Below, in pieces: positions 4,744-52,098 of a stretch of 53,844 nucleotides of DNA (the stretch's first letter is position 1; the number at the start of each line of letters is the position of its first letter). The position numbers and the translations under genes were made by a program. This DNA comes from Pristiophorus japonicus. Its lineage: Eukaryota. Under the pieces are notes generated by a model that was not told where the DNA came from, ran no database searches, and worked only from the letters and a program-made list of their open reading frames with translations. The stretch covers positions 1-53,844 of the forward strand of contig NW_027251303.1 of the NCBI RefSeq assembly GCF_044704955.1, given 5' to 3'.

Positions 4744-5097
4744 GTCTAAAGGCAAGTCCGGTTCTTATCCAGTCCCCAGAAGTTGTGACGGTGCCCGAGG
4801 GTGGGACGGTGCAGTTTGGGTGTACCCTGGAGAGCAGCAATGTGAATGACCGTGTGGATAAATATACTGTACACTGGTACCTCTCACAGGATAGGAAACA
4901 CAAAATATTTACTCATTATGTAGATGGCAGGATTTACCGATCACACGGTGTCTCTGAGCGGTTTCAGCTTTCCAGAGATGTTGCCAGTAACAGCTACATT
5001 CTGACCATCAGAGGCGTGGAGCGCAGAGACAGCGCGGTCTATATCTGTGGTATTTGGGGATCAATCTATGGAAATGGAAACCGGCTGAATGTAACCA
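4744..5097 (+). CDS. Exon: Ig V-set domain 1 (germline-joined VJ type) of an IgSF receptor
   Basis: Acceptor ttcacag|GT at 4743/4744, donor A|gtaagt at 5097/5098, phase 1-1. The translation has B-strand Cys (QFGC), C-strand Trp (VHWY), RF..S, LTI..V...DSAVYIC and a J-like YGNGNRLNVT. Confidence 0.93.
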
Positions 5098-5629
5098 GTA
5101 AGTATATTCTACATTATATTGGTTTGATATCTAATAATGTTACAATACCAACATCTCATGTGTAAGTAAATGTTGTACAACGTTGTCACTTTTACAGTAA
5201 CAACACTGAGTGGAAATTCTAAGTACAGAATGGAGGGTGAAATCTGGGACAAACTCCATTTGTTTTTAATTTGTTTAAGTGAGCACATGGTGGGACAAAA
5301 CCTCACACACAGGATTCAACGGGAAAATACATGTTGAGGGAAAAGTGCAGTAATAGGAATAATGGTGACATACCTGGTTAAATCAGGATATTGACAGGGT
5401 ATATATATAAAACAATGCATCTCTGAGTGACTAAATCTGCACTCATCAATGCAAACAAATGAACCCTCGACCCTTTCCAAGCTGCAATACACCATCCTTC
5501 AGCCTGTTAATGTAATTCAGGAATGTGCAATCCGCTTTCAGAATGGCTGGGCGGCAAAGTAGTGCGTCTCGTTTTGGAGTTGAAAGCCAGAAAATATTTA
5601 ATAATAGAGTCCCGTGAGAAACTCGTCCG

Positions 5630-8600
5630 TGGGCCCGGAATGTACCCAATACACACAGACTGTAGTGGGTCTGGAATGTGCACAATACACACAGACTGTA
5701 GTGGGTCTGGAATGTGTCCAATACACACAGACTGTAGTGGGTCTGGAATGTGTCCAACACACACACAGACTGTAGTGGGTCTGGAATGTGTCCAATACAC
5801 ACAGACTGTAGTGGGTCTGGAATGTGCACAATACACACAGACTGTAGTGGGTCTGGAATGTGTCCAATACACACAGACTGTAGTGGGTCTGGAATGTGTC
5901 CAACACACACAGACTGTAGTGGGTCTGGAATGTGTCCAATACACACAGACTGTAGTGGGTCTGGAATGTACCCAATACACACAGACTGTAGTGGGTCTGG
6001 AATGTACCCAATACACGCAGACTGTAGTGGGTCTGGAATGTACCCAATACACACAGACTGTAGTGGGTCTGCAATGAACCCAATACGCACAGACTGTAGT
6101 GGGTCTGGAATGTACCCAATACACACAGACTGTAGTGGGTCTGGAATGTACCCAATACACACAGACTGTAGTGGGTCTGGAATGTATCCAATACACACAG
6201 ACTGTAGTGGGTCTGCAATGACCACAATACGCACAGACTGTAGTGGGACTGGAATGTATCCAATATACACAGCCTGTAGTGGGTCTGGAATGTACCTGAT
6301 ACACACAGACTGTAGTGGGTCTGAAATGTACACAATACACACAGACTGTTGTGGGTCTGGAATGTACCCAATACACACAGACTGTAGTGGGTCTGGAATG
6401 TATCCAATACACACAGACTGTAGTGGGTCTGGAATGTACCCAATACACACAGACTGTAGTGGGTCTGGAATGTACCCAATACACACAGACTGTAGTGGTT
6501 CTGGAATGTACCCAATACACACAGACTGTAGTGGGTCTGGAATGTACACAATACACACAGACTGTAGTGGGTCTGCAATGTACATTATACACACAGACTG
6601 TAGTGGGTCTGGAATGTACCCAATACACGCAGACTGTAGTGGGTCTGGAATGTACCCAATACACACAGACTGTCGTGGGTCTGGAATGTACCCAATACAC
6701 ACAGACTGTAGTGGGTCTGGAATGTATCCAATACACACAGACTGTAGTGGGTCTGCAATGAACCCAATACGCACAGACTGTAGTGGGACTGGAATGTATC
6801 CAATATACACAGCCTGTAGTGGGTCTGCAATGAACCCAATACGCACAGACTGTAGTGGGACTGGAATGTATCCAATACACACAGACTGTAGTGGGTCTGC
6901 AATGAACCCAATACGCACAGACTGTAGTGGGACTGGAATGTATCCAATACACACAGACTATAGTGGGTCTGGAATGTACCTGATACACACAGACTGTAGT
7001 GGGTCTGAAATGTACACAATACACACAGACTGTAGTGGGTCTGGAATGTACCCAATACACACAGACTGTAGTGGGTCTGGAATGTACCCAATACACACAG
7101 ACTGTAGTGGGTCTGGAATGTACCCAATATACACAGACTGTAGTGGGTCTGGAATGTACCCAATACAAAAAGACTGTAGTTGGTCTGGAATGTACCCAGT
7201 ACACACAGACTGTAGTGGGTCTGGAATGTACCCAGTACACACAGACTGTAGTGGGTCTGGAATGTACCCAGTACACACAGACTGTAGTGGGTCTGGAATG
7301 TACCCAGTACACACAGACTGTAATTGGTCTGGAATGTACCCAGTACACACAGACTGTAGTGGGTCTGGAATGTACCCAATACACACGGACTGTCGTGGGT
7401 CTGGAATGTACCCAATACATACAGACTGTAGTTGGTCTGGAATGTGCCCAGTACACACAGATTGTAGTGGGTCTGGAATGTACCCAATACACACGGACTG
7501 TAGTGGGTCTGGAATGTACCCAATACATACAGACTGTAGTTGGTCTGGAATGAACCCAATACACACACACTGTAGTTGGTCTGGAATGTACCCAATACAC
7601 ACAGACTGCAGTGGGTGTGGAATATACCCAATACACACAAACTGTCGTGTGTCTGGAATGTGCCCAATACGCACAGACTGTAGTGGGTCTGGAATGTACC
7701 CAATACACACAGACTGTAGTGGGTCTGGAATGTACCCAATACACACGGACTGTAGTGGGTCTGGAATGTACCCAATACACGCAGACTGTAGTGGGTCTGG
7801 AATGTGCCCAGTACACACAGACTGTAGTGGGTCTGGAATGTACCCAATACACACGGACTGTAGTGGGTCTGGAATGTACCCAATACAAAAAGACTGTAGT
7901 TGGTCTGGAATGTACCAAGTACACACAGACTGTAGTGGGTCTGGAATGTACCCAGTACACACAGACTGTAGTGGGTCTGGAATATACCCAATACACACAG
8001 ACTGTAGTGGGTCTGGAATGTACCCAGTACACACAGACTGTAGTTGGTCTGGAATGTACCCAGTACACACAGACTGTAGTGGGTCTGGAATGTACCCAGT
8101 ACACACAGACTGTAGTGGGTCTGGAATGTACCCAGTGCACACAGACTGTACTGGGTCTGGAATGTACCCAGTACACACAGACTGTCGTGGGTCTGGAATG
8201 TACCCAATGCACACAGACTGTAGTGGGTCTGGAATGTACCCAATACACACAGACTGTAGTGCGTCTGGAATGTGCCCAATACACACAGACTGTAGTGGGT
8301 CTGGAATGTACCCAATACACACAGACTGTAGTGCGTCTGGAATGTACCCAATACACACAGACTGTAGTGCGTCTGGAATGTGCCCAATACACACAGACTG
8401 TAGTGGGTCTGGAATGTACCCAATACACACAGACTGTAGTGGGTCTGGAATATACACAATACACACAGACTGTAGTGGGTCTGGAATGTACCCAATACAC
8501 ACAGACTGTAGTGGGTCTGGAATGTACCCAATACACACAGACTGTAGTGGGTCTGGAATGTACACAATACACACAGACTGCAATGGGTCTGGAATGTACC

Positions 8601-11600
8601 CAATACACACAGACTGTAGTGGGTCTGGAATGTACCCAATACACACAGACTGTAGTGGGTCTGGAATGTACACAATACACACAGACTGTAATGGGTCTGG
8701 AATGTACCCAATACACACAAACTGTCGTGTGTCTGGAATGTGCCCAATACACACAGACTGTAGTGGGTCTGGAATGTACCCAATACACACAGACTGTAGT
8801 TGGTCTGGAATGTGCCCAGTACACACAGACTGAAGTGGGTCTGGAATGTACCCAATACACACGGACTGTAGTGGGTCTGGAATGTACCCAATACATACAG
8901 ACTGTAGTTGGTCTGGAATGTACCCAGTACACACAGACTGTAGTGGGTCTGGAATGTACCCAGTACACACAAACTGTCGTGTGTCTGGAATGTGCCCAAT
9001 ACACACAGACTGTAGTGGGTCAGGAATGTACCCAATACAGGCAGACTGTAGTGGGTCTGGAATGTGCCCAGTACACACAGACTGTAGTGGGTCTGGAATG
9101 TACCCAATACACACGGACTGTAGTGGGTCTGGAATGTACCCAGTACACACAGACTGTAGTGGGTCTGGAATGTACCCAGTGCACACAGACTGTAGTGGGT
9201 CTGGAATGTACCCAATGCACACAGACTGTCGTGGGTCTGGAATGTACCCAATACACACAGACTGTCGTGGGTCTGGAATGTACACAATACACACAGACTG
9301 TAATGGGTCTGGAATATACCCAATACACACACACTGTAGTTGGTCTGGAATGTACCCAATACACACAGATTGTAGTGGGTCTGGAACATACCCAATACAC
9401 ACAGACTGTAGTGGGTCTGGAATGTACCGAATACACACAGACTGTATTGGGTCTGGAATGTACCCAATACACACGGACTGTCGTGGGTCTGGAATGTACC
9501 CAATACATACAGACTGTAGTTGGTCTGGAATGTGCCCAGTACACACAGATTGTAGTGGGTCTGGAATGTACCCAATACACACGGACTGTAGTGGGTCTGG
9601 AATGTACCCAATACATACAGACTGTAGTTGGTCTGGAATGAACCCAATACACACACACTGTAGTTGGTCTGGAATGTACCCAATACACACAGACTGCAGT
9701 GGGTGTGGAATATACCCAATACACACAAACTGTCGTGTGTCTGGAATGTGCCCAATACGCACAGACTGTAGTGGGTCTGGAATGTACCCAATACACACAG
9801 ACTGTAGTTGTTCTGGAATGTACACAATACACACAGACTGCAGTGGGTCTGGAATGTACACAATACACACAGACTGTAATGGGTCTGGAATATACCCAAT
9901 ACACACAGACTGTAGTTGGTCTGGAATATACCCAATACACACAGACTGTAGTTGGTCTGGAATGTACCCAATACACACAGATTGTAGTGGGTCTGGAACA
10001 TACCCAATACACACAGACTGTAGTGGGTCTGGAATGTACCGAATACACACAGACTGTAGTGGGTCTGGAATGTACCCAATACACACAGACTGTAGTGGGT
10101 CTGGAATGTACCCAATACATACAGACTGTAGTGGGTCTGGAATGTACACAATACACACAGACTGCAGTGGGTCTGGAATATACCCAATACAAACAGACTA
10201 TAGTGGGTCTGGAACGTACCCAATACACAGAGACTGTAATGGGTCTGGAATGTACCCAATACACACAGACTGTAGTGGGTCTGGAATGTACCCAATACAC
10301 ACAGACTGCAGTTGGTCTGGAATGTACCCAATACACACAGACTGTAGTGGGTCTGGAATGTACCCAATACACACAGACTGTAGTGGGTCTGGAATGTGCC
10401 CAATACACACAGACTGTAGTGGGTCTAGAATGTACCCAATACACGCAGACTGTAGTGGGTCTGGAATGTGCCCAATACACACAGACTGTAGTGGGTCGGG
10501 AATGTACCCAATACACACAGACTGTCGTGGGTCTGGAATGTACCCAATACACACAGACTGCAGTGGGTCTGGAATGTACCCAATACACACGGACTGTAGT
10601 GGGTCGGGAATGTACCCAATACACACAGACTGTAGTGGGTCTGGAATATACCCAATACAAACAGACTATAGTAGGTCTGGAATGTACCCAATACACACAG
10701 ACTGTAGTGGGTCTGGAATGTACCCAATACACACGGACTGTAGTGGGTCTGGAATGTACCCAATACACACAGACTGCAATTGGTCTGGAATGTGCCCAAT
10801 ACACACAGACTGTAGTGGGTCTGGAATGTACCCAGTACACACAGACTGTCGTGGGTCTGGAATGTACCCAATGCACACAGACTTTAGTGGGTCTGGAATG
10901 TACCCAATACACACGGACTGTAGTGGGTCTGGAATGTACCCAATGCACGCAGACTGTAGTGGGTCTGGAATGTGCCCAGTACACACAGACTGTAGTGGGT
11001 CTGGAATGTACCCAATGCACACGGACTGCAGTGGGTCTGGAATGTACCCAATACAAAAAGACTGTAGTTGGTCTGGAATGTACCCAGTACACACAGACTG
11101 TAGTGGGTCTGGAATGTACCCAGTACACACAGACTGTAGTGGGTCTGGAATATACCCAGTACACACAGACTGTAGTGGGTCTGGAATGTACCCAGTACAC
11201 ACAGACTGTAGTTGGTCTGGAATGTACCCAGTACACACAGACTGTAGTGGGTCTGGAATGTACCCAGTACACACAGACTGTAGTGGGTCTGGAATGTACC
11301 CAGTGCACACAGACTGTAGTGGGTCTGGAATGTACCCAGTACACACAGACTGTTGTGGGTCTGGAATGTACCCAATGCACACAGACTGCAGTGGGTCTGG
11401 AATGTACCCAATACACACAGACTGTAGTGCGTCTGGAATGTGCCCAATACACACAGACTGTAGTGGGTCTGGAATGTACACAATACACACTGACTGTAAT
11501 GGGTCTGGAATATACCCAATACACACAGACTGTAGTGCGTCTGGAATGTGCCCAATACACACAGACTGTAGTGGGTCTGGAATGTACCCAATACACACAG

Positions 11601-14600
11601 ACTGTAGTGGGTCTGGAATGTACCCAATACACACGGACTGTCGTGGGTCTGGAATGTACCCAATACACACAGACTGAAGTGGGCCTGGAATATACCCAAT
11701 ACACACGGACTGTAGTGGGTCTGGAATGTACCCAATACATACAGACTGTAGTTGGTCTGGAATGTACCCAGTACACACAGACTGTAGTGGGTCTGGAATG
11801 TACCCAGTACACACAGACTGTAGTGGGTCTGAAATGTACCCAATACACGCAGACTGTAGTGGATCTGGAATGTACACAATACACACAGACTGCAGTGGGT
11901 GTGGAATATACCCAATAAACACAAACTGTCGTGTGTCTGGAATGTGCCCAATACACACAGACTGTAGTGGGTCAGGAATGTACCCAATACACACAGACTG
12001 TAGTGGGTCTGGAATGTACCCAATACACACGGACTGTCTTGGGTCTGGAATGTACCCAATACACGCGGACTGTCGTGGGTCTGGAATGTACCCAATATAT
12101 ACAGACTGTAGTTGGTCTGGAATGTGCCCAGTACACACAGATTGTAGTGGGTCTGGAATGTACCCAATACACACGGACTGTAGTGGGTCTGGAATGTACC
12201 CAATACATACAGACTGTAGTTGGTCTGGAATGAACCCAATACACACACACTGTAGTTGGTCTGGAATGTACCCAATACACACAGACTGCAGTGGGTGTGG
12301 AATATACCCAATACACACAAACTGTAGTGGGTCTGGAATGTACCCAGTACACACAGACTGTAGTGGGTCTGGAATGTACCCAGTACACACAGACTGTAGT
12401 GGGTCTGGAATGTACCCAGTACACACAGACTGTAATTGGTCTGGAATGTACCCAGTACACACAGACTGTAGTGGGTCTGGAATGTACCCAGTACACACAG
12501 ACTGTAATTGGTCTGGAATGTACCCAGTACACACAGACTGTAGTGGGTCTGGAATGTACCCAGTACACACAGACTGTAGTGGGTCTGGAATGTACCCAGT
12601 ACACACAGACTGTAGTGGGTCTGGAATGTACCCAGTACACACAGACTGTAGTGGGTCTGGAATGTACCCAGTACACACAGACTGTAATTGGTCTGGAATG
12701 TACCCAGTACACACAGACTGTAGTGGGTCTGGAATGTACCCAATACACACGGACTGTCGTGGGTCTGGAATGTACCCAATATATACAGACTGTAGTTGGT
12801 CTGGAATGTGCCCAGTACACACAGATTGTAGTGGGTCTGGAATGTACCCAATACACACGGACTGTAGTGGGTCTGGAATGTACCCAATACATACAGACTG
12901 TAGTTGGTCTGGAATGAACCCAATACACACACACTGTAGTTGGTCTGGAATGTACCCAATACACACAGACTGCAGTGGGTGTGGAATATACCCAATACAC
13001 ACAAACTGTCGTGTGTCTGGAATGTGCCCAATACACACGGACTGTAGTGGGTCTGGAATGTACCCAATACAAAAAGACTGTAGTTGGTCTGGAATGTACC
13101 AAGTACACACAGACTGTAGTGGGTCTGGAATGTACCCAGTACACACAGACTGTAGTGGGTCTGGAATATACCCAGTACACACAGACTGTAGTGGGTCTGG
13201 AATGTACCCAGTACACACAGACTGTAGTTGGTCTGGAATGTACCCAGTACACACAGACTGTAGTGGGTCTGGAATGTACCCAGTACACACAGACTGTAGT
13301 GGGTCTGGAATGTACCCAGTGCACACAGACTGTAGTGGGTCTGGAATGTACCCAGTACACACAGACTGTCGTGGGTCTGGAATGTACCCAATGCACACAG
13401 ACTGTAGTGGGTCTGGAATGTACCCAATACACACAGACTGTAGTGCGTCTGGAATGTGCCCAATACACACAGACTGTAGTGGGTCTGGAATGTACCCAAT
13501 ACACACAGACTGTAGTGCGTCTGGAATGTACACAATACACACAGACTGTAGTGCGTCTGGAATGTGCCCAATACACACAGACTGTAGTGGGTCTGGAATG
13601 TACCCAATACACACAGACTGTAGTGGGTCTGGAATGTACACAATACACACAGACTGTAGTGGGTCTGGAATGTACCCAATACACACAGACTGTAGTGGGT
13701 CTGGAATGTACCCAATACACACAGACTGTAGTGGGTCTGGAATGTACCCAATACACACAGACTGTAGTGGGTCTGGAATGTACACAATACACACAGACTG
13801 CAATGGGTCTGGAATGTACCCAATACACACAGACTGTAGTGGGTCTGGAATGTACACAATACACACAGACTGTAATGGGTCTGGAATGTACCCAATACAC
13901 ACAAACTGTCGTGTGTCTGGAATGTGCCCAATACACACAGACTGTAGTGGGTCTGGAATGTACCCAATACACACAGACTGTAGTGGGTCTGGAATGTACC
14001 CAATACACACGGACTGTCGTGGGTCTGGAATGTACCCAATACACACAGACTGTAGTTGGTCTGGAATGTGCCCAGTACACACAGACTGAAGTGGGTCTGG
14101 AATGTACCCAATACACACGGAGTGTAGTGGGTCTGGAATGTACCCAATACATACAGACTGTAGTTGGTCTGGAATGTACCCAGTACACACAGACTGTAGT
14201 GGGTCTGGAATGTACCCAGTACACACAGACTGTAGTGGGTCTGGAATGTACCCAATACACGCAGACTGCAGTGGATCTGGAATGTACACAATACACACAG
14301 ACTGCAGTGGGTGTGGAATATACCCAATACACACAAACTGTCGTGTGTCTGGAATGTGCCCAATACACACAGACTGTAGTGGGTCAGGAATGTACCCAAT
14401 ACACGCAGACTGTAGTGGGTCTGGAATGTGCCCAGTACACACAGACTGTAGTGGGTCTGGAATGTACCCAATACACACGGACTGTAGTGGGTCTGGAATG
14501 TACCCAGTACACACAGACTGTAGTGGGTCTGGAATGTACCCAGTGCACACAGACTGTAGTGGGTCTGGAATGTACCCAGTACACACAGACTGTCGTGGGT

Positions 14601-17600
14601 CTGGAATGTACCCAATGCACACAGACTGTAGTGGGTCTGGAATGTACCCAATACACACAGACTGTCGTGGGTCTGGAATGTACACAATACACACAGACTG
14701 TAATGGGTCTGGAATATACCCAATACACACACACTGTAGTTGGTCTGGAAAGTACCCAATACACACAGATTGTAGTGGGTCTGGAACATACCCAATACAC
14801 ACAGACTGTAGTGGGTCTGGAATGTACCGAATACACACAGACTGTAGTGGGTCTGGAATGTACCCAATACACACAGACTGCAGTGGGTCTGGAATATACC
14901 CAATACACACAGACTGTAGTTGTTCTGGAATGTACACAATACACACAGACTGCAGTGGGTCTGGAATGTACACAATACACACAGACTGTAATGGGTCTGG
15001 AATATACCCAATACACACAGACTGTAGTTGGTCTGGAATATACCCAATACACACAGACTGTAGTTGGTCTGGAATGTACCGAATACACACAGACTGTAGT
15101 GGGTCTGGAATGTACCCAATACACACAGACTGTAGTGGGTCTGGAATGTACCCAATACATACAGACTGTAGTGGGTCTGGAATGTACACAATACACACAG
15201 ACTGCAGTGGGTCTGGAATATACCCAATACAAACAGACTATAGTGGGTCTGGAACGTACCCAATACACAGAGACTGTAATGGGTCTGGAATGTACCCAAT
15301 ACACACAGACTGTAGTGGGTCTGGAATGTACCCAATACACACAGACTGCAGTTGGTCTGGAATGTACCCAATACACACAGACTGTAGTGGGTCTGGAATG
15401 TACCCAATACACACAGACTGTAGTGGGTCTGGAATGTGCCCAATACACACAGACTGTAGTGGGTCTAGAATGTACCCAATACATGCAGACTGTAGTGGGT
15501 CTGGAATGTACCCAATACACACAGACTGTCGTGGGTCTGGAATGTACCCAATACACACAGACTGCAGTGGGTCTGGAATGTACCCAATACACACGGACTG
15601 TAGTGGGTCGGGAATGTACCCAATACACACAGACTGTAGTGGGTCTGGAATATACCCAATACAAACAGACTATAGTAGGTCTGGAATGTACCCAATACAC
15701 ACAGACTGTAGTGGGTCTGGAATGTACCCAATACACACGGACTGTAGTGGGTCTGGAATGTACCCAATACACACAGACTGCAATTGGTCTGGAATGTGCC
15801 CAATACACACACACTGTAGTGGGTCTGGAATGTACCCAGTACACACAGACTGTCGTGGGTCTGGAATGTACCCAATGCACACAGACTTTAGTGGGTCTGG
15901 AATGTACCCAATACACACGGACTGTAGTGGGTCTGGAATGTACCCAATGCACGCAGACTGTAGTGGGTCTGGAATGTACCCAGTACACACAGACTGTAGT
16001 GGGTCTGGAATATACCCAGTACACACAGACTGTAGTGGGTCTGGAATGTACCCAGTACACACAGACTGTAGTTGGTCTGGAATGTACCCAGTACACACAG
16101 ACTGTAGTGGGTCTGGAATGTACCCAGTACACACAGACTGTAGTGGGTCTGGAATGTACCCAGTGCACACAGACTGTAGTGGGTCTGGAATGTACCCAGT
16201 ACACACAGACTGTCGTGGGTCTGGAATGTACCCAATGCACACAGACTGCAGTGGGTCTGGAATGTACCCAATACACACAGACTGTAGTGCGTCTGGAATG
16301 TGCCCAATACACACAGACTGTAGTGGGTCTGGAATGTACACAATACACACTGACTGTAATGGGTCTGGAATATACCCAATACACACAGACTGTAGTGCGT
16401 CTGGAATGTGCCCAATACACACAGACTGTAGTGGGTCTGGAATGTACCCAATACACACAGACTGTAGTGGGTCTGGAATGTACCCAATACACACGGACTG
16501 TCGTGGGTCTGGAATGTACCCAATACACACAGACTGAAGTGGGTCTGGAATGTACCCAATACACACGGACTGTAGTGGGTCTGGAATGTACCCAATACAT
16601 ACAGACTGTAGTTGGTCTGGAATGTACCCAGTACACACAGACTGTAGTGGGTCTGGAATGTACCCAGTACACACAGACTGTAGTGGGTCTGAAATGTACC
16701 CAATACACGCAGACTGTAGTGGATCTGGAATGTACACAATATACACAGACTGCAGTGGGTGTGGAATATACCCAATACACACAAACTGTCGTGTGTCTGG
16801 AATGTGCCCAATACACACAGACTGTAGTGGGTCAGGAATGTACCCAATACACACAGACTGTAGTGGGTCTGGAATGTACCCAATACAAAAAGACTGTAGT
16901 TGGTCTGGAATGTACCCAGTACACACAGGCTGTAGTGGGTCTGGAATGTACCCAGTACACACAGACTGTAGTGGGTCTGGAATGTACCCAGTACACACAG
17001 ACTGTAGTGGGTCTGGAATGAACCCAGTACACACAGACTGTAATTGGTCTGGAATGTACCCAGTACACACAGACTGTAGTGGGTATGGAATGTACCCAGT
17101 ACACACAGACTGTAGTGGGTCTGGAATGTACCCAGTGCACACAGACTGTAGTGGGTCTGGAATGTACCCAGTACACACAGACTGTCGTGGGTCTGGAATG
17201 TACCCAATGCACACAGACTGTAGTGGGTCTGGAATGTACCCAATACACACAGACTGTAATGGGTCTGGAATATACCCAATACACACACACTGTAGTTGGG
17301 CTGGAATGTACCCAATACACACAGACTGTAGTGGGTCTGGAATGTACCCAATACACACGGACTGTAGTGGGTCTGGAATGTACCCAGTACACACAGACTG
17401 TAGTGGGTCTGGAATGTACCCAGTGCACACAGACTGTAGTGGGTCTGGAATGTACCCAGTACACACAGACTGTCGTGGGTCTGGAATGTACCCAATGCAC
17501 ACAGACTGTAGTGGGTCTGGAATGTACCCAATACACACAGACTGTCGTGGGTCTGGAATGTACACAATACACACAGACTGTAATGGGTCTGGAATATACC

Positions 17601-20600
17601 CAATACACACACACTGTAGTTGGTCTGGAATGTACCCAATACACACAGATTGTAGTGGGTCTGGAACATACCCAATACACACAGACTGTAGTGGGTCTGG
17701 AAAGTACCGAATACACACAGACTGTAGTTGGTCTGGAATGTACCCAATACACACAGATTGTAGTGGGTCTGGAACATACCCAATACACACAGACTGTAGT
17801 GGGTCTGGAATGTACCGAATACACACAGACTGTAGTGGGTCTGGAATGTACCCAATACACACAGACTGTAGTGGGTCTGGAATGTACCCAATACATACAG
17901 ACTGTAGTGGGTCTGGAATGTACACAATACACACAGACTGCAGTGGGTCTGGAATATACCCAATACAAACAGACAATAGTGGGTCTGGAACGTACCCAAT
18001 ACACAGAGACTGTAATGGGTCTGGAATGTACCCAATACACACAGACTGTAGTGGGTCTGGAATGTACCCAATACACACAGACTGCAGTTGGTCTGGAATG
18101 TACCCAATACACACAGACTGTAGTGGGTTTGGAATGTACCCAATACACACAGCCTGTAGTGGGTCTGGAATGTGCCCAATACACACAGACTGTAGTGGGT
18201 CTAGAATGTACCCAATACACGCAGACTGTAGTGGGTCTGGAATGTGCCCAATACACACAGACTGTAGTGGGTCGGGAATGTACCCAATACACACAGACTG
18301 TCGTGGGTCTGGAATGTACCCAATACACACAGACTGCAGTGGGTCTGGAATGTACCCAATACACACGGACTGTAGTGGGTCGGGAATGTACCCAATACAC
18401 ACAGACTGTAGTGGGTCTGGAATATACCCAATACAAACAGACTATAGTAGGTCTGGAATGTACCCAATACACACAGACTGTAGTGGGTCTGGAATGTACC
18501 CAATACACACGGACTGTAGTGGGTCTGGAATGTACCCAATACACACAGACTGCAATTGGTCTGGAATGTGCCCAATACACACAGACTGTAGTTGGTCTGG
18601 AATGTACCCAGTACACACAGACTGTCGTGGGTCTGGAATGTACCCAATGCACACAGACTTTAGTGGGTCTGGAATGTACCCAATACACACGGACTGTAGT
18701 GGGTCTGGAATGTACCCAATACACGCAGACTGTAGTGGGTCTGGAATGTGCCCAGTACACACAGACTGTAGTGGGTCTGGAATGTGCCCAATACACACGG
18801 ACTGTAGTGGGTCTGGAATGTACCCAATACAAAAAGACTGTAGTTGGTCTGGAATGTACCCAGTACACACAGACTGTAGTGGGTCTGGAATGTACCCAGT
18901 ACACACAGACTGTAGTGGGTCTGGAATATACCCAGTATACACAGACTGTAGTGGTTCTGGAATGTACCCAGTACACACAGACTGTAGTTGGTCTGGAATG
19001 TACCCAGTACACACAGACTGTAGTGGGTCTGGAATGTACCCAGTACACACAGACTGTAGTGGGTCTGGAATGTACCCAGTGCACACAGACTGTAGTGGGT
19101 CTGGAATGTACCCAGTACACACAGACTGTCGTGGGTCTGGAATGTACCCAATGAGCACAGACTGCAGTGGGTCTGGAATGTACCCAATACACACAGACTG
19201 TAGTGCGTCTGGAATGTGCCCAATACACACAGACTGTAGTGGGTCTGGAATGTACACAATACACACTGACTGTAATGGGTCTGGAATATACCCAATACAC
19301 ACAGACTGGAGTGCGTCTGGAATGTGCCCAATACACACAGACTGTAGTGGGTCTGGAATGTACCCAATACACACAGACTGTAGTGGGTCTGGAATGTACC
19401 CAATACACACGGACTGTCGTGGGTCTGGAATGTACCCAATACACACAGACTGAAGTGGGTCTGGAATGTACCCAATACACACGGACTGTAGTGGGTCTGG
19501 AATGTACCCAATACATACAGACTGTAGTTGGTCTGGAATGTACCCAGTACACACAGACTGTAGTGGGTCTGGAATGTACCCAGTACACACAGACTGTAGT
19601 GGGTCTGAAATGTACCCAATACACGCAGACTGTAGTGGATCTGGAATGTACACAATACACACAGACTGCAGTGGGTGTGGAATATACCCAATACACACAA
19701 ACTGTCGTGTGTCTGGAATGTGCCCAATACACACAGACTGTAGTGGGTCAGGAATGTACCCAATACACACAGACTGTAGTGGGTCTGGAATGTACCCAAT
19801 ACACACGGACTGTCTTGGGTCTGGAATGTACCCAATACACGCAGACTGTAGTGGGTCTGGAATGTGCCCAGTACACACAGACTGTAGTGGGTCTGGAATG
19901 TACCCAATACACACGGACTGTAGTGGGTCTGGAATGTACCCAATACAAAAAGACTGTAGTTGGTCTGGAATGTACCCAGTACACACAGGCTGTAGTGGGT
20001 CTGGAATGTACCCAGTACACACAGACTGTAGTGGGTCTGGAATGTACCCGGTACACACAGACTGTAGTGGGTCTGGAATGTACCCAGTACACACAGACTG
20101 TAATTGGTCTGGAATGTACCCAGTACACACAGACTGTAGTGGGTCTGGAATGTACCCAGTACACACAGGCTGTAGTGGGTCTGGAATGTACCCAGTGCAC
20201 ACAGACTGTAGTGGGTCTGGAATGTACCCAATACACACAGACTGTAATGGGTCTGGAATATACCCAATACACACACACTGTAGTTGGTCTGGAATGTACC
20301 CAATACACACAGATTGTAGTGGGTCTGGAACATACCCAATACACACAGACTGTAGTGGGTCTGGAATGTACCGAATACACACAGACTGTAGTGGGTCTGG
20401 AATGTACCCAATACACACAGACTGTAGTGGGTCTGGAATATACCCAATACACACAGACTGTAGTTGTTCTGGAATGTACACAATACACACAGACTGCAGT
20501 GGGTCTGGAACGTACCCAATACACAGAGACTGTAATGGGTCTGGAATGTACCCAATACAACAGACTGTAGTGGGTCTGGAATGTACCCAATACACACAGA

Positions 20601-23133
20601 CTGCAGTTGGTCTGGAATGTACCCAATACACACAGACTGTAGTGGGTCTGGAATGTACCCAATACACACAGACTGTAGTGGGTCTGGAATGTACACAATA
20701 CACACAGACTGTAGTGGGTCTGGAATGTGCCCAATACACACAGACTGTAGTGGGTCTAGAATGTACCCAATACACGCAGACTGTAGTGGGTCTGGAATGT
20801 GCCCAATACACACAGACTGTAGTGGGTCTGGAATGTACCCAATACACACAGACTGTAGTGGGTCTGGAATGTAGCCAATACACACAGACTGTAGTGGGTC
20901 TGGAATGTACACAATACACACAGACTGTAGTGGGTCTGCAATGTACCCAATACATACAGACTGTAGTTGGTCTGGAATGTACCCAGTACACACAGACTGT
21001 AGTGGGTCTGGAATGTACCCAGTACACACAGACTGTAGTGGGTCTGGAATGTACCCAGTACACACAGACTGTAGTGGGTCTGGAATGTACCCAGTACACA
21101 CAGACTGTAGTTGGTCTGGAATGTACAAAGTACACACAGACTGTAGTGAGTCTGGAATGTACGCAGTACACACAGACTGTAGTGGGTCTGGAATGTACCC
21201 AGTGCACACAGACTGTAGTGGGTCTGTAATGTACCCAGTACACACAGACTGTCGTGGGTCTGGAATGTACCCAATGCACACAGACTTTAGTGGGTCTTGA
21301 ATGTACCCAATACACACAGACTGTAGTGCGTCTGGAATGTGCCCAATACACACAGACTGTAGTGGGTCTGGAATGTACCCAATACACACAGACTGTAGTG
21401 GGTCTGGAATGTACCCAATACACACAGACTGTAGTGGGTCTGGAATGTACACAATACACACAGACTGTAGTGGGTCTGGAATGTACCCAATACACACAGA
21501 CTGTAGTGGGTCTGGAATGTACCCAATACACACAGACTGTAGTGGGTCTTGAATGTACACAATACACACAGACTGTAATGGGTCTGGAATGTACCCAATA
21601 CACACAGACTGTAGTGGGTCTGGAATGTACACAATACACACAGACTGTCGTGGGTCTGGAATGTACACAATACACACAGACTATAATGGGTCTGGAATGT
21701 ACCGAATACACACAGACTGTAGTGGGTCTGGAATGTACCCAATACACACAGACTGTCGTGGGTCTGGAATATACCCAATACACACAGACTGTAGTTGGTC
21801 TGGAATGTGCCCAATACACACAGACTGTAGTGGGTCTGGAATGTACCCAGTACACACAGACTGTCGTGGGTCTGGAATGTACCCAATGCACACAGACTTT
21901 AGTGGGTCTGGAATGTACCCAATACACACAGACTGTCGTGCGTCTGGGATGTACCCAATACACACGGACTGTAGTGGGTCTGGAATGTACCCAATACACA
22001 CAGACTGTAGTGGGTCTGGAATGTACCCAATACACACAGACTGTCGTGGGTCTGGAATATACCCAATACACACAGACTGTAGTTGGTCTGGAATGTGCCC
22101 AATACACACAGACTGTAGTGGGTCTGGAATGTACCCAATACATACAGACAGTAGTGGGTCTGGAATGTACACAATACACACAGACTGCAGTGGGTCTGGA
22201 ATATACCCAATACAAACAGACTATAATGGGTCTGGAACGTACCCAATACACAGAGACTGTAATGGGTCTGGAATGTACCCAATACACACAGACTGTAGTG
22301 TGTCTGGAATGTACCCAATACACACGGACTGTAGTGGGTCTGGAATGTACCCAATACACACAGACTGTAGTGGGTCTTGAATGTGCCCAATACACACAGA
22401 CTGTAGTGGGTCTGGAATGTACCCAATACACACGGACTGTAGTGGGTCTGGAATGTACCCAATACACACAGACTGTAGTGGGTCTTGAATGTGCCCAATA
22501 CACACAGACTGTAGTGGGTCTGGAATGTACCCAATATACACAGACTGTCATGGGTCTGGAATGTACCCAGTGCACACAGACTGTAGTGGGTCTGGAATGT
22601 ACCCAGTACACACAGACTGTAGTGGGTCTGGAATGTACCCAATACACACAAACTGTAGTGGGTCTGGAATGTACCCAATACACACGGACTGTAGTTGGTC
22701 TGGAATGTGCCCAGTACACACAGACTGTAGTGGGTCTGGAATGTACCCAATACACACAGGCTGTAGTGGGTCTGGAATGTACCCAATACAAACGGAGTGT
22801 CGTGGGTCTGGAATGTACCCAGTACACACAGACTGCAGTGGGTCTGGAATGTACCAAATACACACAGACTGTCGTGGGTCTGGAATGTACCCAATACACA
22901 AAGACTGCAATGGGTCTGGAAAGTACCCAATACACACAGACTGTAGTGGGTCTGGAATGTACCCAATCCACACAGACTGTAGTGGGTCTGGAATGGACCC
23001 AATACACACAGACTGTAGATGGTCTGGAATGTGCCCAATACACACAGATTGTAGTGGGTCTAGAATGTACCCAGTACACACAGACTGTCGTGGGTCTGGA
23101 ATGTACCTAGTACACACAGACTTTAGTGGGTCT
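5630..23133. repeat. 36-bp minisatellite array, ~17.5 kb, roughly 485 units
   Basis: Consensus gtagtgggtctggaatgtacccaatacacacagact. It lies in the V1-V2 intron and accounts for all the long repetitive ORFs from 5446 to 23196. Confidence 0.99.
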
Positions 23134-23134
23134 C

Positions 23135-24645
23135 GAACAGGAGTAGGCCATCTGGCCCCTCGAGCCTTCTCCGCCAATCAAAAAGATCATGGCTGATCTG
23201 GCCGTGGACTCAGCTGCACTTGCCCACCCGCTCCCTGTCACCCTTAATTCCCTTATTGGTTAAAAATGTATCCAGCTGTGATTTGAATACATTCAATGAG
23301 CTCGTCTCAAGTGCTTCCCTGGCCAGAGAATTCCACAGATTCACAACCCTCTGGGAGAAGAAATTCCTTCTCAACTCATTTTTAAATTGGCTCCCCCGTA
23401 TTTTGAGGCTGTGCCCTTTAATTCGAGTCTACCCGACTAGTGGAATCAACCTCTCTGCCTCTATCTTGTCTATCCCTTTCATTATTTTAAATGTTTCTAT
23501 AAGATTATCCCTCATCCTTCTGAACTCCAACGAGTAAAGACCCAGTCTACTCAATCTATCATCAAAAGGTAACCCCCTCATCTCCGGAATCAGCCAAGTG
23601 AATCGTCTCTGTACCCACTCCAAAGCTAGTGTATCCCTCCTTAAGTCAGGTGACCAAAACTGCAAGCAGTACTCCAGGTCCGGCCTCACCAATACCCTGT
23701 ACAGTTGCAGCAGGACCTCCCTGCTTTTGTACTCCATCCCTCTCGCAATGAAGGCCAACATTCCCTTTGCCTTCCTGATTACCTGCTGCACCTGCAAACT
23801 AACCTTTTTTTGGGATTCATGCACAAGGACCAAAAAGAGTTTCATGCACAAGGACCCTCAGGGTCCCTCTGCACCTCAGCATGTTGTAATTTCTCCCCAT
23901 TCAAATAATATTCCCTTTTACTGTTTTTTTTCCCCCAAGGTGGATGACCTCACACTTTCCGACATTGTATTCCATCTGCCAAACCTTAGCCCATTCGCTT
24001 AACCTATCCAAATCTCCTTGCAGCCTCTCTGAGTCCTCTCCACAACCCGCTTTCCCACTAATCTTTGTGTCATCTGCAAATTTTGTTGCACTACACTCTG
24101 TACCCTCTTCCAGGTCATCTATGTATATTCTAAACAGTTGTGGTCCCAGCACTGATCCATGTGGCACACCACTAACCACTGATTTCCAACCCGAAAAGGA
24201 CCCATTTATCCCGACTCTCTGCTTTGTGTTAGCCAGCCAATTCTCTATCCATGCTAATACATTTCCTCTGACTCCGCGTACCTTTATCTTCTGCAGTAAC
24301 CTTTTGTGTGGCACCTTATCGCATGCCTTTTGGAAATCTAAATACACCACATCCATCGGTACACCTCTATCCACCATGCTCGTTATATCCTCAAAGAATT
24401 CCAGTAAGTTAGTTAAACATGATTTCCCCTTCATGAATCCATGCTGTGTCTGCTTGATTGCACTATTCCTATCTCGATGTCCCACTACTTCTTCCTTTAT
24501 GATAGTTTCAAGCATTTTCCCCACTACAGATGTTAAACTAACCGGCCTATAGTTACCTGCCTTTTGCCTGCCCCCTTTTTTAAACAGAGGCGTTACATTA
24601 GCTGCTTTCCAATCCGCTGGTACCTCCCCAGAGTCCAGAGAATTT
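23135..24645 (-). mobile_element. CR1 LINE 3' portion (RT), 5'-truncated
   Basis: Minus-strand QHGFMKGKSCLTNLLEFF, YLDFQKA, GVPHGSVLGP, KFADDTK and LVRPDLEYCLQFWSP; 3' UTR hairpin region at 23135-23200. Confidence 0.95.
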
Positions 24646-29696: not shown

Positions 29697-30044
29697 ATCC
29701 ATTGGCTGATCCGGTCCTTGTTCAGCATCCAACAGTCAGCAAGGTCCCAGAGGGTGAAACCGTGCAGTTACAATGTGCCATGTACAATGCCAGTGTGAGT
29801 GACGCTGATGTCCACTGGCACTGCCAGCGACCCGGGAACAACAGCGAGTGGGTGATGAGCCAGTTTGTGAATGGCACCATTACCAGGTCCCGGGGTATCC
29901 ACGACCGTTTTCTGCCTTCCAGGAACGTCACCAGTAACAGTTACATTCTGACCATCGTGAATGTGTCCCTCAGTGATACTGCTGCCTACAGCTGCAGTGT
30001 GTGGAGCTACATCTATGGAGCAGGGACCCAGCTCAATGTAACCG
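29697..30044 (+). CDS. Exon: Ig V-set domain 2 (germline-joined VJ type)
   Basis: Acceptor tgtacag|AT at 29696/29697 and a GC-type donor G|gcaagt at 30044/30045, at the position equivalent to the V1 donor; phase 1-1. Motifs QLQC, VHWH, DRF, LTIVNVSLSDTAAYSC and YGAGTQLNVT; clearly paralogous to V1. Confidence 0.92.
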
Positions 30045-32462: not shown

Positions 32463-32582
32463 AAACAAAAGTTGTGAAGTCAAGCCTGGTCTGGATCATT
32501 CTGGGTGCTGTGCTGGGAGTCACTGTTGTTACTGGAGGCATTTTACTCATCAGACACACACTTTTTGGAAAAAAACAGTCCG
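32463..32582 (+). CDS. Exon: short stalk plus transmembrane helix
   Basis: ttcctttcacag|AA ... TCC G|gtatgt, phase 1-1, 120 bp. Encodes (E)TKVVKSSLVWIILGAVLGVTVVTGGILLIRHTLFGKKQS: a 22-residue hydrophobic stretch followed by basic residues. Not in the ORF track. Confidence 0.88.
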
Positions 32583-42394: not shown

Positions 42395-42436
42395 AACTCC
42401 GGAGATCGTCTGGAGGATCCAAATGCCACGTACATG
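42395..42436 (+). CDS. Exon: cytoplasmic 2, first half of ITAM
   Basis: tattttgttgtag|AAC ... ATG|gtaaga, phase 0-0. Encodes NSGDRLEDPNATYM. Confidence 0.82.
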
Positions 42437-42538
42437 GTAAGAAACTCCAAATTCAGAACGTTAATACATTCCAAATAACCCTTCATTGGGCACGTGTTAC
42501 TAGATTGCTGATTCTATCATTGCTCTGTTCCCTGTTAG

Positions 42539-42581
42539 GCATTACAGCAACCGGATCAGTCCATATACAGTGAGCTTAAAG
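42539..42581 (+). CDS. Exon: cytoplasmic 3, second half of ITAM
   Basis: ctctgttccctgttag|GCA ... AAA G|gtatgt, phase 0-1. Encodes ALQQPDQSIYSELK; joined to the previous exon it gives YMAL-QQPDQSI-YSEL. Confidence 0.82.
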
Positions 42582-43109
42582 GTATGTTTCTCTCACACTT
42601 GACAAGGGTAGAGGCAAAGCGTGTGATATCGGTCACTTTTTGTATAAATGGCGAAACTGTGGGAAACCTAAAATGGATCCATAGCAGCAACACTGCCTGG
42701 AATAGACCGAGAGCAATGGGCCCAGTGTGGTAACGGGCCATCAGTAGCCCAGTACGGTGATGGATTGAATGTTGTGTGGTGATGAACAGCTTTCACTAAA
42801 TCATTAACACCCACAGCCGCACACACACAAATCCTCTCCTTTGTTCACACTGAGTATTGTAACCAGGTTAAAAGTAGCCAGCACACTTCATTTTCTGATT
42901 CAACATTTTCCATTGGTGTCGAGGGTTAAGCAAGTTATTGGGCCTGATTTTTCCAACAAGAGCTATGTCACATTAATTCTGGGAAAATAGACCATAATAA
43001 TCAAGGAAAAGCTACATACTAGCCGGCCACTTACACTCCGATAACCAGTCATTACTTGTCACTGTTATTTCAGAGATAAACACATCTCCCGCTGATCAAT
43101 TTTTCAACC

Positions 43110-46100
43110 TCAGAATGATACAGGGACTGAAAGGGTTAAATGATTGCATCAATTGGATTGTATTGCCTTCAGTTTCGAAGGTCGAGGGGTGATCTAATCG
43201 AGGTGTTAAAATGTTAAAGGGATTCTGTAAAGTCCTTACTCTACTGCATGAAACCACACGGGGCACCTTCCAGGGACAAGGCCACTACGTGACCTGAACT
43301 CTTTATTTAGTATCCAGAATTGATGACCCTGTGTGGGACCTCCCTTTATATACCTGAGTGATCAGGTAAGGAGTGTCTCCCACAAGTTCACCCCTTGTGG
43401 TCAAGGTGTGCATCTCAGTTGAGTGCATACAGTAATACAGTGGTGTTACATTGTAGTTACAAACATGACATCACCTTCCCCCCACCCCCAAAGTCTTATT
43501 GGGATCATAGGTTCAGTCTTTCAGGTGGTCTACGCTCCCTCGTGGAGCGCTGCAGTTGGGGCTCTGGTTGTTGAACACTGACGTGAGTGTCTGTCCCCTG
43601 TGGTGATTCCGGCCTGTCCGGGCTGACCTCAGGGACTGTGCATTCTTCTGATTGTTTTTGTTGCACATTCACTGGCGGTAGTGTGAGCTCCATCTCATGG
43701 TCTTCTTCAGCTTCCTGCGTGTCATTGCTGAACCTTTTCTTTACTTGGTCCAGATGCTTTCGGCATATCTGGCCATTGTTGAGTTGACTCTATTCCCTTC
43801 TTTGTCTATTACAGTACCCTCGAGCCATTTGGGTCCCATTGCGTGATTGAGGACGAATACAGGATCATTTATTTCTATACATCTCCCCCTCGAATTACGG
43901 TCATGGTACTCGTTTTGTGACTTGCGCTTGCCCTCAACTATGTCAGTCAGGACTGGGTGGATGAGGGACAACCGAGTTTGGAGTGTCCGTTTCTTTAGTA
44001 ACTCCGCGGGCGGGACCACCGTGAGCGAGTGCGGGCGGGATCTATAGGCCAGCAGGAGGCGCGATAGGTGGCATTGTAGGGAGGGTCCTTGAATCCTGAG
44101 CATACCTTGCTTAACGATTTAGACCGCACATTCCGCCTGGCCATTGGAGGCTGGCTTCAATGATGCAGTCCTGAAATCGTTGATGCCATTGCCTGACATA
44201 AACTGCCGGAATTCATAACTTGTGAAACACGGGCCATTGTCACTAACCAGGAGTCTGGCAAGCCATGGGTTGCGAAGATCGCATGTAGGCTTTCCACGGT
44301 GGTGGATGATGTGCATGAATTCAGGATGATGCAGTCGATCTATTTCGAGTACGCATCTACAACGATAAGGAACATCTTACCCACGAACGGGCCCGTGTAG
44401 TCAACGTGAATGCGTGACCATAGCTTGGTGGGCCAGGGCCACTGGCTGAGTGGGGCCTCCCTGGGGGCATTACCCAGCTGGGAACATGTCGTGCACCTTC
44501 AAACACAGTGTTGCAGGTCTGAGTCAATTTCAGGCCACCAAACGTGTGACCGGGCAATGGCCTTCATCATCACAATGCCTGGGTGCTCTCTGTGGAGTTC
44601 CCTGATGAACGCCTCCCTGCCCTTCTGGGGCATAACTACCCGGCTGCCCCATAGTAGGCAGTCAGCTTGGACAGAAAGCTCATCCATCCGCCTGTGGAAC
44701 GGGCGCCCAATCCCCAGTCAGGACACATTTCTTAATCAGGGATAGGAGGGGATCCCTCTTTGTCCAGATTTTGATCTGGCGGGCTGTGATGGGGGAGCCT
44801 GCACTGCTGAAAGCATCGACAGCCATGACCAACTCAGCGCTTTGCTCAGCTGCCCCCTCAGTGGTGGCCAGTGGAAGCCTGATGAGCGTGTCAGCGCAAT
44901 TTTCAGTGCCAGGCCGGTGCCGGATGGAGTAGTCATAGGTAGCCAGCGTGAGAGCCCATTGCTGTATGTGAGCTGATGCGTTGGCATTGACAGGCTTGCT
45001 GTCTGACAACAGGGATGTGAGTGGCTTATGGTCCATTTCCAATTCAAACTTTCTACCAAAGAGGTACTGATGCATTTCTTTACACCATAGACACATGCGA
45101 GCACTTCCTTCTCAACCATCCCATACCCGCTTTCTGCTTGAGAGAGCGACCTGGAGGCATAAGCCACAGGTTGTAGCTGACTCTCAGCATTACCCTGCTG
45201 CAACACGCACCCAAACCCATAGGACGAAGCATCACAAGTCAGAACTAAACTTTTACAGGGGTCATACAGGGTCAACAGCTTGTTAGAACACAGTAGGTTT
45301 CGCGCTCGATCGAAAGCACATTCCTGACAGTCCCCCCAAAACCAATTGCAGCCCTTACGCAGGAGCACGTGTAGCGGCTCCAACAACGTGCTCAAGTTCG
45401 GCAGAAAGTTCCCGAAATAGTTCAACAGTCCCAGGCATGAACGCAGCTCCGATGTGTTGCAGGGCCTGGGTGCTCGTCGAATCGCCTCTGTTTTGGATTC
45501 GGTGGGCCAAATCCCATCTGCAGCAACCCTCCTGCTCAGAAACTCAACCTCGGGAGCTAAAAACATGCATTTAGATTTCTTGAGTCGCAGGCCTACCCGG
45601 TCCAGTCGGCGTAGCACCTCCTCCAGGTTGTGGAGGTGTTCCTCGGTGTCTCGACCCGTGATGAGGATGTCGTCCTGGAATACAATCGTGCCAGGAATTG
45701 ATTTAAGCAGGCTTTCCATGTTGCGTTGAAAGATCGCGGCCGCTGATCGAATGCCAAACGGGCACCTGTTATACGCAAACAGTCCCTTGTGCGTGGTGAT
45801 GGTGATCAGCAGTTCAGATTCGTCGGCCAGTTCCTGGGTCATATAGGCTGATTGAGGTCCAACTTGGTGAACAGCTTGCTGCCTGCCAGCGTGGCGAAGA
45901 GGTCCTCCGCTCTTGGGAGCGGGTATTGGTCTTGTAGGGACACCCGATTGATGGTGGCCTTGTAGTCGCCACAGATCCTGACAGAACCATCTGCTTTCAG
46001 AACGGGGACAATGGGGCTCGCCCAGTCGCTGAATTCAACAGGCGAGACGATGCCCTCTCTCAACAGCTGGTCCAATTCGCTCTCAATTTTCTCCCGCATC

Positions 46101-48005
46101 ACATACGGCACCGCTCTGGCTTTGTGGTGCACTGGCCTGGCGTCTGGGGTGATGTGTATCACTACTTTGGTGCCTTTGAATGTCCCGACGCCAGGTTGGA
46201 ACAGTGACTTGAATTGTTGTAGGACTTATGAGGACCACGGATGACATTGCGTGAACATCCCCCCATTTCCAGTTCATCTCGGCTAACCAGCTCCTCCCAA
46301 CAATGCGGGCCCATTTCCCGGGACAATCCAGAGCGGCAGCCGGTTCACCGAGCCATTGTGTGTGACAGCCAACATTGCACTGCCTAGCACCGGAATGATT
46401 TCTTTGGTTTACGTCCTTAATTGCGTCTCGATGAGTTGTAATTTGGGTCTGCTGGCTTTGCGTGGCCATAATTTCGCGAATTGCTGAACGCTAATGAGTG
46501 ACTGGCTGGCCCCCGTGTCCAGCTCCATGTGTACCGGGATGCTGTTCAACAAAACCCTCATCATCATTGGTGGCGTTTTGGTGTATGAACTGTGAATATT
46601 CACCGCATGGACCCGCTGAACCTCGGCATCCATCGGTTTGCCCCAAAAGTCATCCTGCCTCACAGAACCCTCTTTTGGTCCATCTGCCTCAAATATCAGT
46701 CTGGTTGCAGGCTTTCTGCACAGACGGGCTAAATGGCCACTGAGGTTGCAGTTTCTGCAAACGAACTGTTGGAACCTGCAAGATCTGGCTGAGTGTTTTC
46801 CCCCACACCTCCAACACAAGTTAAAGTTTCCATTGTTGGGGACGAAAGGGCTGTGGCCAGTGATTCCGCGCTGACTGTCCCTTTGACTGCTCTTAAGTAC
46901 CCTATTAGTGGGTGTCAATGGCTCCATCCCGGGCCACATTGTCCACTGTGATGGCGTGAACGTCCGTTCAGCCTGCCATTGTCTTTGTTGAGGTCCTACT
47001 CTGGGGTCTATTGCTGCCTGGGGAGTGTCGGACTGCCCCTGCCTGCCTGCGGGGCTCTGAGTAGCATGGAGCACGTTGACGCCCTGATCCATCGCCGTGT
47101 TGGAGACAGAATTGCGCGCGTAAATCATTTTCGTCTCTTCCTCCCCCGCCATGAAAGTCTGAGCCAACAACGCCGCCGCTTCAAGGTCAAGTCCTTGGTC
47201 TCAATTAACTTGTGAAAGATTCTCACATGACCGATACCTTCAATAAAGAAGACCCTTAGCATCTCCCCACTGCAGGCATCTGTGAACTTACAGAGGCTGG
47301 TCAAACGCCGGAGGTCCACTACAAAGTCCGGTATGCTCTGCCCTTCACAATGTGTAGAATCTGTGTCGAGCCATGTGTATGCTGCTCACCAGCTTGAGGT
47401 GCTCCCCAATCAACTTGCTAAGCTCCTCAAAGGTTTTGTCCGACGGCTTCTCAGGTGCCAGGAAGTCCTTCATGAGCGCATAAGTCTTTGGTCCACAGCT
47501 GGTCAAGAGATGAGCCCGACGCTTGTCGGCCGCTGCATCCCCCAGCCAGTCTTTCGTCACAAAACTCTGCTGAAGCCTCTCAACAAAATCGTCCCAGTCT
47601 TCCCCAACATAGTACCGTTCATCTGTGTTACCGGTGGCCATTCTCGTGGGTCGTGAGTTCCCGTTTCTCGTCGCCAATGTAAAGTCCTTACTCCACTGCA
47701 TGAAACCACACGAGGCACATTCCAGGGACAAGGCTACTACGTGACCTGAACTCTTTATTCAGTACTCCAGAAGTGATGACCCTGTGTGTGACCTCCCTTT
47801 ATATACCTGTGTGATCAGGTAAGGAGTGTCTCCCACAAGTTCACCCCTTGTGGTCAAGGTGTGCATCTCAGTTGAGTGCATACAGTAATACAGTGGTGTT
47901 ACATTGCAGTTACAAAATGACAGATTTGATGGGGTAGATTGAGAGAAACTATTTTCTCTGATGGGAGAATTAAGAACAAGACGGCATAATCTTAAAATGA
48001 GAGTT
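43110..48005 (+). mobile_element. Old CR1 3' fragment split by the Gypsy insertion (43110-43225 and 47923-48005)
   Basis: ggggtgatctaatcgaggtgttaaaatgttaaagggattc continues after the LTR element as gatggggtagat..gagaaactatttt...agaacaag..ggcataatcttaaaat. Confidence 0.75.
43226..47922 (-). mobile_element. Full-length but decayed Gypsy LTR retrotransposon (Mag / K02A2.6-like)
   Basis: TG..CA LTRs at 43226-43470 and 47678-47922. PBS TGGCGACGAG lies next to the right LTR and a PPT next to the left LTR. Gag has two Cys/His knuckles; PR LDTGA, RT FQDDIL, RNase H TCDASSYG, IN HPGIVMMK..ARSHVWW and VSDNGPCF, in Gypsy order. Frameshifts present. TSD gattc/gattt. Confidence 0.96.
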
Positions 48006-52087: not shown

Positions 52088-52098
52088 GCAATAAATAA
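52088..52098 (+). CDS. Putative terminal coding exon (G-N-K-stop) followed by 3' UTR
   Basis: Strong polypyrimidine acceptor ttgtttttaattttgttcaaacag|GC AAT AAA TAA. It is phase-1 compatible with the donor at 42581 and lies in a non-repeat island (about 51940-52540). Confidence 0.55.

Follow-up and report, generated by a model that had tools for sequence, protein, structure and literature searches.

The window analysed here, a stretch of 53,844 nucleotides from the sawshark Pristiophorus japonicus (contig NW_027251303.1), contains two exons that together encode an ITAM. We consider it probable that this is the conserved ITAM of a receptor with VJ-type domains, acting as the activating partner in a family with ITAM and ITIM tails, and that its three-exon tail was shuffled from a CEACAM-type receptor before sharks and rays split.

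The predicted gene and its split ITAM

The features of the predicted gene are as follows.

4744..5097, + strand: V exon 1, V-set with a J-like end in a single exon, phase 1-1 (Pfam V-set, E 1.4e-14)
29697..30044, + strand: V exon 2, family domain type 3, phase 1-1 (Pfam V-set, E 2.4e-14), GC donor
32463..32582, + strand: TM exon, 120 nt, phase 1-1, identical to the deposited model P0057
32737..32810, + strand: first cytoplasmic exon, 74 nt, phase 1-0, encoding YENV (YxN, GRB2-type)
42395-42436, + strand: ITAM exon A, 42 nt, phase 0-0, preceded by ag and followed by gtaagaaa, ending in Tyr-Met
42437-42538, + strand: ITAM intron, 102 nt, GT-AG, phase 0, splitting the first YxxL
42539-42581, + strand: ITAM exon B, 43 nt, phase 0-1, followed by gtatgt
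52088..52098, + strand: coding part of the last exon, 3 codons and the stop, completing the P0057 tail

The initial annotation had taken the two-exon ITAM as support for the gene model, and this held: the seven predicted exons join in one open frame of 329 residues, the final 96 of which are the tail of P0057, a deposited model from P. japonicus. The ITAM is also attached to a VJ-type ectodomain, as had been claimed, with two single-exon V-set domains with J-like ends in the same frame. The best PDB matches of these V domains are antibodies, and no C1-set constant domain was detected in P0057 or in the window model. The TM helix contains no D, E, K or R, and TM exons of this type are present in 4 copies in the genome. 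A leader exon was not found in contig NW_027251303.1. A candidate for the last exon near 43065 was dropped, since the exon at 52088 reproduces the deposited tail. P0057 itself represents a sibling gene, other than the window copy, because contig C699 matches its V domains at 97-100%. Between the two V exons of the window, where siblings have a middle V exon, lies a 17.5-kb array of a 36-nt unit repeated in 486 copies (5629-23137). The intron 3′ of exon B contains an LTR retrotransposon on the - strand (43226-47922), whose ends are 95.5% identical over 246 nt and whose reading frames are broken.

Joined after Tyr-Met, exons A and B give YxxL-x7-YxxL in the tail, 3′ of the TM exon. The proposed split of an ITAM by a 102-bp phase-0 intron was confirmed in all its parts (exons, GT-AG sites and motif), as were the acidic residues upstream of the first Tyr, which stand at -5 and -6. 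Position -3 of this Tyr is Asn in the window, and is N in 12 and D in 4 of 16 sequence windows compared. Asn fits the classical ITAM consensus (D/E/N) of PMC4536121, and departs from the stricter D/E form of the rule given in the available text of PMC5112662. A Pfam scan for ITAM (PF02189) with 7 whole ITAM-bearing proteins gave no match at E up to 1, the motif being short.

The ITAM exon pair is unique within the window, as judged from a splice-signal scan of both strands. As a control for chance, 300 Markov-simulated sequences of 23 kb were used: pairs at most 500 nt apart arose in 1 of the 300, and pairs at most 20 kb apart in 23, so that a chance origin is unlikely yet not nil. The search for the exon pair elsewhere in the genome, suggested at the outset, yielded 5 loci with both ITAM exons, in line with 5 copies of exon A, and 20 loci with exon B alone or in part. 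The ITAM intron was 102 nt long in all 4 paralogues compared. Deposited isoform models generally reflect RNA-seq; those of the sawshark paralogue P0060 and of the ray P0067 skip exon B at the same donor, P0060 joining exon A directly to the last exon (52088 type), and the ray model P0077 reads through at the same exon A donor.

Orphan copies of exon B number 19 and are found for instance at C9:5927814-5931172, C1816:317889-321251, C4060, C137 and C2571. A V exon lies ∼2.9 kb upstream in 5 of the 6 read, without a TM exon or exon A between, and in the one copy checked the gap was a LINE. Splicing V to an orphan exon B would shift the frame and lead to a stop after ∼10 codons, which might yield a secreted form; frameshifts are present in two of the V exons upstream of orphan exon B. 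Another paralogue (C9:5720238-5720498) has a stop codon where exon B otherwise encodes the conserved Gln, and a TM exon was not found in the 30 kb upstream.

CEACAM-like kin of the tail

The intron position had been read as tying the tail to CD3, CD79, FcR-gamma and DAP12. Classical ITAMs as a rule consist of two exons, with a phase-0 boundary in the first YxxL (PMC4536121). To compare ITAMs within the same genome, Pfam matches (CD3e, CD247-type TM) were followed by splice-signal scans, which gave six control ITAMs with predicted exons: one CD3e-like, two neighbouring CD3g/d-like and three CD247-like. The two genes beside CD3e are presumably CD3g/d-like; their Ig exons were not located. They stand in tandem (C11:219829770-219850365), and in the first of them Ile replaces Leu in the first module. 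All six controls are split after Y-x in phase 0, and one CD247-like exon is likewise 42 nt long and in phase 0-0. The same position as in CD3 was therefore recovered here, and for CD79, FcR-gamma and DAP12 it is taken from the literature; genes for DAP10, DAP12 and FcR-gamma were not found in this genome. Being common to all classical ITAMs, the intron position does not name a donor, nor does it tie the tail to these adaptors. They resemble the window ITAM in YxxL-x7-YxxL and in the intron after Y-x (PMC4536121, PMC4034164), but they are adaptors with an acidic TM residue, while the TM of the window receptor is uncharged. None of them was found among the matches of the tail profile described below, and the closest kin are CEACAM-like.

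A profile was built from eight TM+tail segments, thus including the TM, and compared with 1.84 billion representative proteins. It retrieved 11 matches, 6 from the family itself and 5 from outside, at E 2.7e-7 to 4.3e-4. The named ones among the latter are PSG22-like (Heterodontus, Scyliorhinus) and CEACAM1-like (Callorhinchus); the unnamed ones, a TM+tail fragment from Cetorhinus and a hypothetical lizard Ig protein, we take to be CEACAM-like by resemblance. CD3, CD79, FcR-gamma, DAP12 and NFAM1 were absent from the 11 matches among these 1.84 billion representatives.

The Cetorhinus fragment, used as a query in the sawshark genome, picked out 9 TM exons on C33 and a single copy on C17, contiguous but broken. 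The sequence 3′ of 7 of the 9 C33 exons was read, and contained exon B and a YEN exon in 6 cases each, and exon A in 4 cases. These four copies of exon A are of the 42-nt type (the length was verified for one), with introns of 133-135 nt, and C33 exon A ends in TACATG followed by gtaagaaa, as in the window. The YEN exon is in phase 1-0 in both, with 65 nt on C33 and 74 nt in the window, and the upstream Tyr motif lies 21 residues away on C33 and 23 in the window. Compared with one C33 gene, the window ITAM has 13 of 28 residues identical, with 19 of 42 nt in exon A (controls 13-16) and 30 of 43 nt in exon B, which is 44 nt long on C33. The six CD3/CD247-like ITAMs share 4-7 of 28 residues and 8-18 of 42 nt with the window. 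A tail HMM made from 24 family sequence windows, which had been selected beforehand by the residues preceding the second Tyr, gave 25-42 bits to six CEACAM-like tails and -2 to 6 to the six CD3/CD247-like controls, the scores of the five profile-found CEACAM-like tails being partly circular. The interior of the ITAM intron had no likeness to the C33 intron (495 of 1000 shuffles scored as high).

Outside the tail, the two groups differ. The window family and shark PSG-like ectodomains align over just 9 and 37 residues, and as judged from these sequences the ectodomains of the VJ family and of the CEACAM-like genes show no kinship other than the Ig fold. The CEACAM label of the C33 genes is moderately supported, by record names and by weak PDB matches: P0068 matches CEA, contactin-1 and CEACAM1 best, with E values of 4e-7 to 1.5e-6. 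Synteny with LIPE does not support it, as LIPE lies on C36/C37. The C17 copy (C17:85945663-85945905), an intronless and broken CEACAM-like TM + ITAM tail, is probably a processed pseudogene, and would then show C33 tail exons spliced together.

According to the available text of PMC2110893, PMC2832619, PMC5112662 and PMC13278318, CEACAM ITAM tails are exchangeable exon sets with an upstream YxN or single-Tyr motif; the last of these describes reptile CEACAMs whose ITAM tail spans three exons and has a single Tyr motif 17-21 residues further upstream. In the same texts, ITAM CEACAMs (dog CEACAM28; marsupial, reptile and Xenopus forms) are like the window receptor in having an ITAM in their own tail, with a phase-0 split in the first YxxL, an upstream YxN or single-Tyr motif, tail exons swapped as a set, and an oppositely oriented ITIM partner. 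They differ in their N/A/B domains, in place of which the window family has an array of antibody-like, disulfide-type V domains with J-like ends. The shuffled ITAM cassette of the initial annotation is likely as far as exon shuffling goes, but its size was underestimated: it has three exons, with the upstream YEN exon, and not two.

Two other histories of the tail have to be weighed. The tail could be a generic classical ITAM, its CEACAM likeness being due to convergence on kinase/SH2 preferences or to a deep common ITAM origin. The split shared with all classical ITAMs and with 6 of 6 in the genome, the CD247-like exon of equal length and phase, the unlike intron interiors and a comparison that spans just 28 codons all leave room for this reading. 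Yet spacer and flank residues, exon length, donors, the short intron and the phases of the YEN exon match CEACAM-like genes and not CD3/CD247, and 1.84 billion proteins gave only CEACAM-like look-alikes outside the family, so we give it a slight chance. Alternatively, it may be the ectodomain that moved, VJ exons having replaced that of a CEACAM-type gene, or both families may have kept the tail of an older ancestral receptor. The profile matches do span TM and tail, and with V and TM exons all in phase 1-1 the ectodomain exons are equally portable. Against this, the ITIM genes of the family include other TM types, the ITAM tail occurs on two TM types, and the C33 genes carry extra sequence between TM and YEN exon; the chance of this second history is similarly slight. 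We thus favour transfer of the tail. Its direction, from CEACAM to the VJ family, is proposed tentatively from the wider spread of tails of the CEACAM type.

A shark and ray family with opposite tails

The family sample comprised 131 proteins, after exclusion of 10 CEACAM-like rows. An ITAM was present in 37 of them, and an ITIM/ITSM-type motif at the end in 45. Among these ITAMs are 18 distinct cores, each with a spacer of 7 residues. Family matches were labelled shark or ray in 52 cases out of 52 in one search and in 103 out of 104 in another, with one unlabelled. No labelled chimaera member was seen among 52, 6 and 104 matches (one unlabelled) in word-based, length-limited searches.

In the genome, at least 133 V-exon matches were counted, 150 of 648 candidates having been scored, together with 18 TM exons of the ITIM type, against 4 of the window type. 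Family loci are on C9 and on unplaced contigs, as opposed to C33 for the CEACAM-like genes. The window V exons 1 and 2 are respectively 86% and 95% identical to domains of P0019, which is of ITIM/ITSM type; it is because ITIM-tailed paralogues have V domains 86-95% identical that we propose ITAM/ITIM pairing. One ITAM gene and one ITIM gene stand in facing orientation on C3961. With near-identical ectodomains and opposite tails, the family has, by sequence, the anatomy of paired receptors.

Within the family, tails also appear to combine with different TM segments. A TM other than the window type precedes the ITAM tail in three carpet-shark genera. The bamboo-shark ITAM protein P0006 shares 49 of 61 residues with the ITIM protein P0026 in TM and first exon; with P0036, which has an ITAM as well, it shares 16 of 53 residues in that region and 13 of 24 in the ITAM. 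A TM tree needs 2 label changes, and 34% of bootstrap trees permit 1. The ITIM last exon, which holds both ITIM-type tyrosine motifs unsplit, is compatible with exon A in phase, both beginning in phase 0. The idea that the ITAM arose by point changes from the family ITIM tail was rejected, as the ITIM motifs are unsplit and just 3 of 18 aligned residues are common.

Several deposited isoforms bear on the architecture of family proteins. At the annotated locus LOC134350038 of Mobula hypostoma, the isoforms P0038 and P0047 have 250 residues in common but end differently, one with an ITIM-type tail and the other with an ITAM: either one ectodomain takes alternative tails, or neighbouring genes were merged. 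P0054, P0063, P0075 and P0076, from three shark species, leave out the TM exon (phase 1-1) without loss of frame, which predicts soluble V-domain proteins still bearing the tail. Divergent single-exon VJ domains, 36-39% identical to those of the window, were also seen several Mb from the main cluster (C9:655985-656305 and C9:1012204-1012524); a simple scan detected no C1 exon within about 20-26 kb on their 3′ side.

Among known systems, elasmobranch UrIg and UrIg2 (PMC12227049) are similar in having V and J-like parts in a single exon. UrIg genes possess C1 domains, however, and the available text of PMC12227049 mentions no ITAM or ITIM, whereas the present family has V domains only, plus signalling tails, and is of the size counted above. 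NFAM1, teleost NITR and NILT and hagfish NICIR likewise combine V-type Ig domains with tyrosine motifs in the receptor's own tail, a likeness of architecture. NFAM1 was rejected as a source of the tail, since it was not among the profile matches and its Ig family PF25830 had no match in the genome (a control had none either); on 2 of 8 proteins scanned, PF25830 gave scores below the cut-off. No published account of the VJ family or of the shared tail was found in a literature search covering few subscription journals, and the available text of PMC6795676 names no such shark family. The intron rule is already known; the VJ family and its CEACAM-type tail appear undescribed.

Predicted signalling and the fate of the tail

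Does the window copy itself make a membrane receptor? It could instead produce a secreted protein with two V domains, by read-through of the GC donor that follows V exon 2 at 30045, its tail exons being recent hitch-hikers of segmental duplication. Read-through there gives a secreted-type end, and the deposited models P0005, P0015, P0017 and P0058 end in this way; the middle V exon of the siblings is missing, the orphan exon B copies show much decay, and two other contigs match the ITAM exons and their intron at 100%, so that selection is unreadable. On the other hand, G at -1 and AAGT at +3 to +6 are retained around the GC donor, and GC is also present in 6 of 14 other copies of V exon type 3 (L056-L069; GT in 6 and AT in 2). 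The frame stays open through all seven exons, and the reading is confined to the window copy, since sibling C699 has GT and matches P0057. We regard it as unlikely, with a modest chance of being right. A different doubt concerns the sign of the signal. It had been noted that the second Tyr fits the ITIM consensus, and indeed SxYxxL is conserved, with Ser at -2 in 17 of 18 distinct cores and Gln at +4 in 18 of 18. The motif might then be dual or switchable, single phosphorylation or an acceptor 9 nt downstream leaving SxYxxL alone to recruit SHP-1/2. Such an acceptor may be provided by the in-frame CAG at 42545-42547, and its use would delete the first YxxL. In the epaulette shark, the RefSeq isoform P0031 lacks, relative to P0053, exactly the three residues after Y-x, a gap that would follow from such an acceptor; the CAG codon was read in this genome. 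But the short isoform was seen in 1 of 131 proteins, P0094 lacking exon A instead, and dedicated ITIM/ITSM paralogues exist. Nearby tandem acceptors often reflect low-level splicing noise, and P0031 may be of this kind. The Ser, moreover, is shared by all six CEACAM-like tails and may be inherited; it is thus an old feature of the cassette and no proof of ITIM function. The chance that the motif is dual is small in our estimation.

A bolder scenario, to which we grant a similarly small chance, is that a jump of the three-exon cassette from CEACAM-type receptors to arrays of germline-joined VJ domains in early elasmobranchs created a natural one-chain ‘chimeric antigen receptor’, with later TM swaps within the family and a flip from ITAM to a lone inhibitory SxYxxL through a conserved second acceptor 9 nt into exon B.

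Coming back to an activating receptor with a CEACAM-type tail, ITAM biology suggests how it would signal. Clustering by ligand would lead a Src-family kinase to phosphorylate both ITAM tyrosines, on which the tandem SH2 domains of Syk/ZAP-70 would dock, while the upstream YENV would recruit GRB2. With its uncharged TM, the receptor would need neither DAP12 nor FcR-gamma as an adaptor. By analogy with CEACAM1 and CEACAM3, as presented in the available text of PMC5112662 and PMC4079198, the small number of ITAM genes would act against ligands, perhaps of microbial origin, of the many ITIM receptors.

The tail then has candidate partners in Syk/ZAP-70, GRB2 and SHP-1/2. A traceable transfer of an entire signalling tail between two Ig-superfamily families would be a concrete route to activating paired receptors, and a large, unnamed family of single-exon VJ domains bears on the debate over non-rearranging relatives of antigen receptors. 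If the proposed reading is true, sharks own an adaptor-independent activating receptor made of antibody-like domains.
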